Of a DNA stretch of 64,000 nucleotides, positions 43,340 to 46,884 are shown in pieces (positions within the stretch are counted from its first letter, which is position 1; each line of letters opens with the position of its first letter). The notes below the pieces were generated by a model, which had not been told where the DNA came from, did no database searches, and saw only the letters and a program-made list of their open reading frames with translations. The position numbers were made by a program, and so were the translations under genes. This DNA comes from Candidatus Zixiibacteriota bacterium (GTDB lineage Bacteria > Zixibacteria > MSB-5A5 > UBA10806 > 4484-95). The stretch covers positions 1-64,000 of the forward strand of contig JAOZPT010000001.1 of the NCBI GenBank assembly GCA_029932605.1, in the 5' to 3' direction.

Positions 43340-43350
43340 ATATATTATGA

Positions 43351-44018
43351 GATAATAGCCAATAGCACAAGGCTCGTGGCCTACGGCTCTACTAATAGCT
43401 ATTACAAAATATGGCATGTATTTTTTATTCTTTTAACTTTTCCTCAAATTCCGTAAAATAATTGTTTATAACCCTTAAATTAAATTTCGAAGGTACGGTA
43501 GGACAGACTTTTAGTCTGTCCGGTCAGACAGGAATGTCTGACCTACCAGCAATCTTGAATTTGGAGTTGTTGAGGTTTTCGTTTCACTCAGACACCGACC
43601 TACGATTACCCTCAACGATTCTGGACAGCATTTTTTGCTGACCCTACATGAATCTACACTTTTATATGATAATAGCCAATAGCACAAGGCTCGTGGCCTA
43701 CGGCTCTACTAATAGCTATTACAAAATATGGCATGTATTTTTTATTCTTTTAACTTTTCCTCAAATTCCGTAAAATAATTGTTTATAACCCTTAAATTAA
43801 ATTTCGAAGGTACGGTAGGACAGACTTTTAGTCTGTCCGGTCAGACAGGAATGTCTGACCTACCAGCAATCTTGAATTTGGAGTTGTTGAGGTTTTCGTT
43901 TCACTCAGACACCGACCTACGATTACCCTCAACGATTCTGGACAGCATTTTTTGCTGACCCTACATAAATCTACACTTTTATATGATAATAGTCAAGAGC
44001 ACAAGGCTCGTGGCCTAC
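43351..44018. repeat. Tandem direct repeat: 2 x 317 bp plus a 34-bp partial third copy, made of REP-like palindromes
   Basis: Units start at 43351, 43668 and 43985. Copies 1 and 2 differ at one seen position (43650 G vs 43967 A). Confidence 0.92.
43497..43547. repeat. Inverted REP doublet (REPIN-like); second copy at 43814-43864
   Basis: GGTAGGACAGAC-TTTTA-GTCTGTCC followed by GGTCAGACA-GGAA-TGTCTGACCTACC. Confidence 0.75.
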
Positions 44019-44574: not shown

Positions 44575-46176
44575 TTATAAAAGGTATTTCCTTGGGTCAG
44601 CAATAGCGCCCTCAAGGGCAGAGGCAGCCGCGGTAGCTGGAGAAGATAGATAAACTTCCGGATTCTTTGAGTTGGTTTGCCGGATTAAATCACAGCTGTT
44701 GGTAGTAAGGATTCTTTCATCTGCAGCAAGCATATCCTTGTGAGCTCCCGCACATGAGCCGCAACCCGGACTTAACATGACACACCCCGACCCAACTAAA
44801 GAACGGATATAACCTTTATCGATTGCGGCAAGATATGTTTTGCGGGAAGCGGGTACGATTATCATCCGGGTGTCGCGGTGGATACGTCTTCCCCGGAGTA
44901 TGGAGACAACCATTTCCAGGTCATCTAAACGACCACTTGAACATCCGCATAATACAATCTGGTCTATTTTCTTACCCGCTACATCTTCCACCGGTTTAAC
45001 ACAATGCTTTTTATTCAGACATGCGACCTGAGGTGTGAGATATGAGACATCTATTTCGATTTCGTTTTCGTATTTGGCATTGATGTCAGGAGCAATTGGA
45101 GAGAATCTTTCTTTGGTAATTTTTTTTAAGTATCTTTGAGATACATCATCAAAGGGAATTATGGCTGATTTTGCCCCGATTTCCAAGGAGGAACTGGTTA
45201 AAATAAGTCTTTGTGGCACCGTCATTGTGGAGACCGCATCACCATAGAATTCCAGCGCCTTATAATTTATATCCTCAAAATGAAGGTCTCGGGATAATTT
45301 AAGGATGATATCTTTTGCGAATACACCCCGGGTGGGTAAACCGTTTATAACCACCTTGATAGTTTTGGGTACTTTCAGCCAGATTCTGCCCGAGGCCCAT
45401 ACTACCGCCATATCCAGTGGGCTTATACAGGTTGAGAAAGCACCAATACTTCCGTGGGATGTGGCTTGGTTATCGGTTGCCACAATCAGGCGGCTGGGAA
45501 GTATTAATCCCTCTTCGAGGGTAATCTGGTATGGTATTCCCCAACCGATATCGTAAAATTTTTCTATTCTTTGTTTTTTAACAAATTTGCGGATTCTTTT
45601 GTGGACATCGGCAATCTTCCCAAATTCATTTTGTGTCCAGTCATTCAAAATTATAGTGATTTTTGAATTGTCCCACACTTTGGGAAAGCCTGTCAGTTTA
45701 AACTGTTTTATAATTTGTTCGGTATCGTCAACTGATACAGCTAGGTCGGGTCGGACGCTTATGACCTGACCCTCTTCTACTGATTTCAGCCCGGACTTTT
45801 TTGCCAGTAATTTTTTGATAAATGTTTCTCTTCGGGAATCTCTGCTTTTCCTGTAGGTTCCTCTTAAGTCCAGTTCAAGTTGTTCCATTTTCAGTTGAAC
45901 CGGTTTTTTCTTGATGCCGTATTTGATGCGCCATTGGCGGAAGCCGGGACCGGATATCCCCAGCTCTGCTCCGGCTAATCTATCATCACCATAGCGTTCC
46001 CAGAGTTCTATTATTTTCTCATGTGAATATTTTGAGAAGCTGTATTGTCCGATATTTTTCTTCGAGCGCCAGTATGCGACCAAACGGCTGGGCACTCCAT
46101 AGACCTCTGCAATTTTCTTGTCGGTTCGGTATTTCTTTTGAAGCTCTAAGAGCTCTTTTTTCTTGGGTATTTTCAC
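44575..46176 (-). CDS. Aconitase/LeuC-like large subunit with two N-terminal HTH repeats; catalytic motifs degenerate
   Basis: Motifs WLKVPKTIKV, GVFAKDIIL, GAKSAI, CGCSSGRLDDL, PGCGSCAG and YLSSPATAAASA. Residues 1-90 are two HTH-like repeats. GTG start. Confidence 0.85.
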   Translation of the reverse strand: MKIPKKKELLELQKKYRTDKKIAEVYGVPSRLVAYWRSKKNIGQYSFSKYSHEKIIELWERYGDDRLAGAELGISGPGFRQWRIKYGIKKKPVQLKMEQLELDLRGTYRKSRDSRRETFIKKLLAKKSGLKSVEEGQVISVRPDLAVSVDDTEQIIKQFKLTGFPKVWDNSKITIILNDWTQNEFGKIADVHKRIRKFVKKQRIEKFYDIGWGIPYQITLEEGLILPSRLIVATDNQATSHGSIGAFSTCISPLDMAVVWASGRIWLKVPKTIKVVINGLPTRGVFAKDIILKLSRDLHFEDINYKALEFYGDAVSTMTVPQRLILTSSSLEIGAKSAIIPFDDVSQRYLKKITKERFSPIAPDINAKYENEIEIDVSYLTPQVACLNKKHCVKPVEDVAGKKIDQIVLCGCSSGRLDDLEMVVSILRGRRIHRDTRMIIVPASRKTYLAAIDKGYIRSLVGSGCVMLSPGCGSCAGAHKDMLAADERILTTNSCDLIRQTNSKNPEVYLSSPATAAASALEGAIADPRKYLL

Positions 46177-46194: not shown

Positions 46195-46680
46195 TTACTG
46201 GAGTTTTTTTAGATGTTTTTTTAAAGAGTCGTATATATCCAGTAAAGCAAGCGATTGGACTTTTGTTAACCCCACAACTGGCATAAAATTGGTGTCTCCC
46301 TGGAAACGTGGTACAACATGTATATGCAGATGGTCAGTGATGCTTGAACCGGCCACCTCGCCGATATTGATACCGATATTTAAGCCGTCAGCCGGCATGG
46401 CGATATTGAGAAGTTTTGAGCTGAGAATCATGAGTCTAAACATCTCTGTATATTCAGCTTTAGTCAATTTATCAAGGTTGGATTTATGTTTATTGGGAGC
46501 TATCATTAAATGCCCACTGTTATAAGGGTAGCGGTTTAAAATGATAAAAGCATTTTTACCCCTGTATAAGATCAGATTTTGCCGGTCTCTTTTTTGTTTT
46601 AACCGACTGCAAAATATACATTCTTTTTCTTTTGAGCCAATAATATATTCAGCACGCCAGGGTGCCCAGAGCTCTTCCAT
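46195..46680 (-). CDS. HIT family nucleotide hydrolase/phosphorylase (Ap4A-type)
   Basis: Motifs LWAPWR, CIFC, NRYPYNSGHL and the histidine triad HLHIHVVPR. Start set at MEELW. Confidence 0.92.
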   Translation of the reverse strand: MEELWAPWRAEYIIGSKEKECIFCSRLKQKRDRQNLILYRGKNAFIILNRYPYNSGHLMIAPNKHKSNLDKLTKAEYTEMFRLMILSSKLLNIAMPADGLNIGINIGEVAGSSITDHLHIHVVPRFQGDTNFMPVVGLTKVQSLALLDIYDSLKKHLKKLQ

Positions 46681-46884
46681 GTTATACAAGTTAAATAGAA
46701 TGATTTTAAAATCAAGAATTTTTTGAGAATTATTATTTCTTGTGAGAAGAATTGACAAAAAGTTGACATCCGATTTATTATAATAATATATTAATGTCAG
46801 ATGACTACTCCCCGATAGAATACAGAAGAACTTGACATGGTAAAAGACAATGGTTATTTTGTTTTTTTATTGAAGGATTAAATT

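Follow-up and report, generated by a model that had tools for sequence, protein, structure and literature searches.

The gene at positions 44575-46176 on the reverse strand of the window, by which we mean the whole 64,000-nucleotide stretch of DNA analysed here, encodes a protein of 533 aa, with no internal stops in its ORF, in which two HTH units, a candidate clamp-binding motif and a LeuC-like body follow one another. Our preferred reading, which draws on sequence and structure prediction and which we hold at a little under an even chance, is that this would be a core DNA-binding protein docked on the sliding clamp, with the LeuC body as a retired enzyme scaffold. The gene is annotated as '3-isopropylmalate dehydratase', a label behind which its core function would be hidden, and pathway reconstructions that count it toward leucine synthesis are probably in error. 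Should the clamp motif prove genuine, DNA-binding regulators would join the known classes of clamp partner.

The architecture of the protein was examined by profile search, alignment and structure prediction. Residues 118-529 (44590-45825, reverse strand) were assigned by profile and alignment to a LeuC/HacA-type large subunit with degenerate substrate motifs. This body scored 399.7 bits on the NCBIfam model NF001614 (cut-off 385) and aligned end to end with the M. jannaschii large subunits 4nqy and 4kp1 (E 3e-82). In the alignment, the positions of the cluster ligands of 4nqy/4kp1 are occupied by C412 (44941-44943), C472 (44761-44763) and C475 (44752-44754), all lying in the stretch 44752-44943 of the reverse strand, which agrees with the original prediction that the three ligands are kept. 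That prediction had also listed altered catalytic motifs, most of which were recovered by alignment: HD is replaced by VD (149-150), DH by ND (178-179), GVCH by GIPY (213-216) and DSHT by DNQA (235-238). One pairing had to be corrected, as the NRNF position corresponds to S494-C-D-L497 in the window protein and not to NSCD. The window protein keeps 2 of the 10 scored catalytic or substrate residues. By these comparisons, the body is a LeuC/HacA large subunit that has lost its substrate motifs.

AlphaFold2, run on an alignment of 111 rows, modelled two three-helix bundles, a low-confidence linker and a confident body. The bundles correspond to HTH unit 1 (residues 6-39, 46060-46161) and HTH unit 2 (residues 52-86, 45919-46023), both on the reverse strand. 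The two HTH-like repeats that had been proposed at the N-terminus were thus borne out.

We examined the distribution of the family with the N-terminal head as the query. The head was detected in 265 of 285 Zixibacteria genomes and in 194 of the 198 good ones, almost always in a single copy; two head matches were found in 3 genomes. Single-copy retention in 98% of the good genomes, with a head better conserved than the enzyme part that carries it, points to a core function. The head search returned 115 proteins among 397 candidates, all of them (293-933 aa) containing PF00330, and the names that bear an organism were Zixibacteria names, except for one 'bacterium'. When one genome per prokaryotic species was taken, 219 relatives were found; among the best 80 of them, 42 titles name Zixibacteria, and the other 38 carry another label or none, mostly 'Ignavibacteria'. 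The family is likely restricted to the phylum. Two sets were used for the family comparisons, one of 81 phylum-wide rows and one of 111 long proteins.

A head-only AlphaFold2 model repeated the two bundles, with a pLDDT of 86-95 per ten-residue block. Its closest structural matches in VIA-align were HTH DNA-binding domains, with the phage repressor 7tz1 (Z 6.3, rmsd 2.0 over 43 residues) at the top and FapR (Z 5.3), GcrA (Z 5.2) and NtrC4 as further neighbours; these scores (Z of at most 6.3) fall within the range of common arrangements, and the matches cover HTH unit 1. Foldseek with the head gave no match at E ≤ 0.001, its top rows being mostly HTH or homeodomain proteins, and the head profile yielded chance matches only when run against PDB sequences. 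HTH unit 2 is also supported by Pfam matches in family members, as HTH_23 was matched by 63 of 81 family heads and HTH_Tnp_1 by 68 of 81 (E ≤ 0.05); the window head itself matched HTH_23 with 12.4 bits (E 0.15), below the cut-off of 24.6. A profile search of 1.84 billion proteins linked the head to HTH_23 repeat arrays that exceed the Pfam cut-off (41 proteins scanned), and the best ESM Atlas score, 0.83 with HTH_23 clusters, serves as a lead only. We consider it very probable that the head binds DNA.

The original prediction had pointed to the HIT-valS promoter region as a target of the protein. Upstream of the HIT-family gene (250 bp, 73 loci, 16 families), no 7-9-base word and no inverted or direct dyad stood clearly above shuffles, a weak negative given that the start is misplaced in some families; a conserved operator in that region was thus not found. 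Searches with the head also brought up unnamed tandem arrays of its HTH unit (P0145, P0153, P0154, P0157, P0159, P0160 and P0163-P0166), and one array protein among the P0145-P0166 set is fused to TFIIB repeats. Tandem heads without LeuC occur in the short proteins P0148, P0162 and P0167; the C-terminus of P0148 is a clamp-like motif, and P0162 and P0167 lack the motif. Nine short stand-alone head matches resemble fragments.

The head had been described as joined to the body by a basic linker. The linker is present, but a near-invariant motif, Q99-L-E-L-D-L104 (45865-45882, reverse strand), had been overlooked. By pattern and conservation this is a candidate hexameric beta-clamp-binding motif; the conserved head stops abruptly at it, and the linker that follows is variable. 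Q99 is invariant in all 81 phylum-wide rows. The strict pattern Q[LIVM]x[LM]x[FL] was found in 65 of 81 phylum-wide rows and in 95 of 111 long proteins, and a loose pattern, which allows Phe at position 4 and Ile at position 6, in 80 of 81 and 109 of 111, respectively; the exact word QLELDF was present in 3 of the 81 rows and in 5 of the 111 proteins. Position 5 is free across the family, as it is in hexameric clamp motifs, and in this the motif follows the clamp pattern. As a chance background, the genome's crude ORFs contained 150 pattern matches in 745,775 residues, with 135 of 2029 ORFs carrying any match, and the pattern was found in 2 of 104 other tandem-HTH proteins. The motif is kept despite changed spacing in P0152, and it closes the 106-aa head-only protein P0148. 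In the full-length AlphaFold2 model the pLDDT was below 50 for linker residues 101-113 and 67 for residues 91-100, and in the head-only model residues 97-106 were drawn as a helix (pLDDT 53-67). P92 and L95 are invariant as well and K/R96 is almost so; this invariance exceeds the needs of a clamp motif, and the stretch may make another contact.

The review PMC11139829 defines the hexameric clamp-binding motif as Q-aliphatic-x-[L/M]-x-[F/L], gives LQLELDF as a phage-display clamp binder and associates Phe at hexamer position 4, which was found in 13 of 81 members here, with weaker clamp binding. The window protein resembles the hexameric binders covered there, Hda and Pol IV, in that its motif has the same pattern, sits in a linker modelled with low confidence and stays conserved next to a variable C-terminal flank. 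The clamp partners in the passages considered were polymerases, repair enzymes, ligase, the clamp loader and Hda, and no HTH protein built on an enzyme scaffold was among them. Hexameric motifs were about tenfold weaker on the B. subtilis clamp in a second source (bioRxiv 10.64898/2026.05.27.728225), indicating that clamp binding depends on the species.

On the clamp side, the pocket motifs were invariant or almost so in 31 DnaN sequences, and we infer from their sequence that they correspond to the E. coli clamp pocket. The DnaE of the genome carries QTLLF and its MutS carries QISLF, which are pentameric-type motifs, and its MutL, second DnaE and MutS2 showed no convincing clamp motif. Hda and YabA were not found in the genome, which is 99.96% complete, and a single DnaA-family match was present. 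The placement of the gene relative to dnaN followed no pattern on 7 long contigs (0.09-0.90 of the half-contig). We give the QLELDL motif an even chance of binding the beta sliding clamp. At G004:C5:546782-547847, dnaN was matched as two pieces in different frames, which is probably due to an assembly frameshift.

We investigated the state of the LeuC body in the window and in 80 further regions, which together represent 19 families. An intact active site was confined to families f4, f14, f15, f16 and f17, and the ten intact rows formed one short-branched group in a quick tree, the deep branches of which are unsure. A LeuC of the intact clade scored 595.5 bits on NF001614, carried all catalytic residues and had an intact LeuD adjoining it. 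In the 63 full-length loci whose downstream sequence reached 900 bp or more, LeuD was the next gene in 26; these include every one of the 18 loci whose active site is complete, and the 37 loci that lack LeuD keep at most 6 of the 10 scored residues. GSSRE was present in all 19 LeuDs beside intact LeuCs, versus none of the 9 beside degenerate LeuCs. LeuC and LeuD decay together outside the intact clade. The possibility of catalytic, LeuD-paired homologs, raised alongside the original prediction, is partly realised in one clade, where the residues appear intact and LeuD is intact, and elsewhere both partners are degenerate. LeuD is absent near the window gene, as had been noted; the two Aconitase_C matches of the genome sit on other contigs, and its intact LeuD lies on another contig after its own intact LeuC.

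IlvD was looked for in 47 Zixibacteria genomes and found in none, which makes a role in standard leucine synthesis improbable even for the intact form. Branched-chain amino-acid auxotrophy is likely in the phylum, and the LeuC/LeuD annotations in these 47 genomes probably serve other pathways. Each of the same 47 genomes has 1-4 Aconitase_C matches. The intact LeuC of the window genome (L004:1405-3192, on G000:C28) lies between a malate-dehydrogenase-like gene and LeuD and has a C-terminal tail of some 170 aa, the last part of which is lysine-rich and histone-H1-like. With this tail as a possible DNA-contacting appendage, it would be a second such protein of the aconitase family.

To describe selection on the parts of the protein, we compared identities and dN/dS. 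Median identity to the window protein was 76% for the head, 31% for the linker (residues 105-117) and 49% for the body. Median dN/dS was 0.042 for the head and 0.113 for the dead body in the 8 usable pairs of 18 degenerate ones (10 were dropped for saturation or a dS of at least 2), and the dead-body values spanned 0.07-0.22 across the 8 pairs. The intact pairs (n = 3) gave medians of 0.073 for the head and 0.072 for the body, and the window's own dN/dS was saturated against both relatives tried. P442, D364, G312, E309 and D289 were retained in all 65 degenerate members, and the protein was full length in 75 of the 76 members examined, the remaining one ending at a contig edge. The body was 30-50 residues shorter in several families (proteins of 478-509 aa), and the active-site replacements differed lineage by lineage. 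Purifying selection on the dead body indicates that it is kept as a fold and not as a catalyst. A decaying pseudogene, the caveat attached to the original prediction, was ruled out by the median dN/dS of about 0.11 for the dead body, with about 0.04 for the head.

The cluster cysteines were scored in 65 degenerate members from 13 families. None of the three was kept in 39 members, one in 8, two in 5 and all three in 13, and they ranked 69th, 81st and 87th of 119 LeuC-invariant positions in these members. Seven of the 13 scored families keep none of the three, with the head equally conserved, and in family f2 all three are present in 8 of 10 members. In the 111 long proteins, a set richer in close kin than the 65-member set, three cysteines were found in 59 (7 of which are intact enzymes), two in 9, one in 27 and none in 16. 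The sister clade (50 rows) has all three in 46 rows (C412 in 48, C472 in 47 and C475 in 47), and its catalytic residues are kept in few (H179 in 6, S236 in 9, R495 in 8 and R500 in 2). All three cysteines are found in the window protein and its three closest rows; the window's own clade has them in 6 of 33 rows and C472 in 8 of 33. The expectation that the cysteines would be conserved while catalytic residues vary thus held for the sister clade and the window's closest rows but failed for the family as a whole, as the ranks show.

An extra Cys at 492-497 was found in 33 of 52 degenerate three-Cys rows, compared with 13 of the 43 rows that keep at most one Cys and none of 7 intact rows, counts that come from kin rows and are not independent. 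Close to the cluster site, the window protein carries two further cysteines, C410 (within 44941-44949) and C495 (44692-44694); where it has C410, 64 of the 65 degenerate members have Gly, and C495 replaces a substrate Arg. No Rrf2/IscR protein scored above the cut-off in the genome, and two Fur-family matches were found. Since 39 of 65 degenerate members lack the cluster cysteines, Fe-S sensing cannot be the shared job of the family, and the conserved head cannot depend on a cluster. Judged from its residues, a cluster in the window's own protein is plausible. The protein had been viewed as an iron, oxygen or Fe-S sensor; from that view the dead active site, the HTH and a regulator-like role were retained, and Fe-S sensing as a family property was not. 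With the same head throughout, the family forms a natural series from enzyme to pseudoenzyme, in which members are intact with LeuD, keep the cysteines only or have nothing left.

These features can be combined into the preferred reading as follows. The ancestor was probably an active HTH-LeuC/LeuD dehydratase encoded in a HIT-LeuC-LeuD operon; catalysis would have become dispensable in several lineages, and the lasting function would reside in residues 1-104. The two HTH units are predicted to bind DNA and the QLELDL motif to dock the protein on the beta sliding clamp, and the LeuC body, its catalytic motifs lost, is likely kept as a folded scaffold. A head docked on the clamp could reach forks or freshly replicated DNA, where it might tie the control of genes or replication to the cell cycle. 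The cluster may persist as a local extra in the window's protein and the sister clade. A bolder version, in which a phylum-wide, sequence-specific regulator would ride the clamp and couple expression or replication to fork passage, replacing Hda/YabA-type factors, appears doubtful to us.

Other explanations were weighed against docking on the clamp. The invariance of P92 and L95 and the near-invariance of K/R96, beyond the clamp pattern, together with the weak helix at 97-106 in the head-only model and the structural neighbours FapR, GcrA, NtrC4 and the phage repressor, would suit an ordinary global transcription regulator, in which the stretch 92-104 serves dimerisation or contacts RNA polymerase or another partner and the body is a scaffold or a metabolite pocket. 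We consider this somewhat unlikely; with its invariant Gln and unconstrained position 5, the motif stays close to the clamp pattern, it survives changed spacing or upstream residues in P0152 and P0148, no operator appeared upstream of the family's own operon, and the residues that line the body's pocket change freely from lineage to lineage. The cysteine counts pull both ways on a lineage-limited sensor of Fe-S, iron or oxygen, in which cluster occupancy would switch DNA binding. The three ligands in the window protein and its three closest rows, the 47-48 of 50 per cysteine in the sister clade, the 8 of 10 in f2, the extra Cys in 33 of 52 degenerate three-Cys rows and the lack of an Rrf2/IscR protein above the cut-off are set against the absence of every ligand Cys from 39 of 65 degenerate members and seven of 13 families, the low counts in the window's clade (6 of 33 with all three, 8 of 33 with C472) and the two Fur-family matches in the genome, and on balance such a sensor is improbable.

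Slow erosion of a neutral passenger body, with the head doing all the work, would account for active-site replacements that differ per lineage, for the loss of 30-50 residues in several families and for the head-only P0148. It is, in our estimate, highly improbable, as dead-body dN/dS is 0.07-0.22 in 8 pairs, 75 of 76 members are full length and five residues are retained in 65 of 65. It is most improbable of all that the protein is an active dehydratase relying on a LeuD from the LeuCD pair elsewhere in the genome, possibly with a new substrate. That LeuD is intact and lies on another contig, but it has its own intact LeuC; the window protein keeps all three cysteines and scores above the family cut-off, but it retains only 2 of 10 catalytic residues, its relatives share no fixed new motif, and GSSRE is missing from all 9 LeuDs that adjoin degenerate LeuCs.

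We compared the protein with known systems that combine similar parts. Regulators that join an HTH to an enzyme fold are common. NagC/Mlc, DeoR/SorC and PutA consist of an HTH and an enzyme-derived domain, the enzyme part being dead in several of them, and these regulators and FapR keep a conserved ligand pocket. The window protein shares with HTH regulators on enzyme folds, such as FapR, the fusion of an HTH to an enzyme-derived domain; it differs from the FapR/NagC type in that its pocket varies freely, its head consists of two tandem units with kinship to HTH_23 repeat arrays, and its family has dead and intact states side by side. IRP1 and the bacterial aconitase switches are four-domain enzymes that are active when holo and bind RNA without an HTH. 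The IRP1 chains 3sn2 and 2b3x were matched at E 1e-7, and the likeness is that of an aconitase fold in regulatory use. Compared with IRP1, the window protein is without domain 4 (no Aconitase_C domain was found in it), has lost the substrate motifs and carries DNA-binding-type domains, and the cluster ligands are not a constant of its family. The body aligns end to end with the archaeal-type isopropylmalate isomerase/homoaconitase (M. jannaschii 4nqy, 4kp1 and 4kp2; NF001614, TIGR01343); relative to the M. jannaschii large subunit, the window protein has 117 additional N-terminal residues, with the two HTH units and the clamp-like motif, and lacks both the substrate motifs and LeuD. No description of the HTH-on-LeuC architecture was found in the searched literature, which lay largely outside subscription journals; an HTH on an enzyme fold is itself known.

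The neighbourhood of the gene was also examined. A HIT-family gene encoding 161 aa (46195-46680, Pfam HIT) lies 18 bp upstream on the same strand; its best NCBIfam match, ATP adenylyltransferase, is below the cut-off. Of 80 related loci, 76 have a HIT gene, usually directly upstream. A likely sigma-70-type promoter was recognised by eye at 46688-46715 (reverse strand), 7 nt before the HIT start. This promoter is too weak for a consensus scan, which did not list it, but its -35-like word recurs at a similar distance in all 9 same-family loci. HIT translation likely starts at the ATG at 46680; the longer reading from the TTG at 46758 would overlap the promoter, and the HIT transcript would be leaderless. 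An SMC/Rad50-like ATPase gene closely precedes HIT in 27 of 76 loci (5 families), with an SbcD-like gene ahead of it in 13 of 80 longer loci; the window is without both. At L045:2209-3321 and L056:3174-5273, an SbcD/Mre11-like gene, a weak match in which the first metal motif is apparently degenerate, is followed by an SMC/Rad50-like ATPase gene, an arrangement found upstream of HIT in several families. At 43345-44018 the window contains a tandem duplication, two 300-nt copies that are 99% alike and the start of a third, with a spacing of 317 bp and paired hairpins, and one of the hairpin words occurs only there in the genome.
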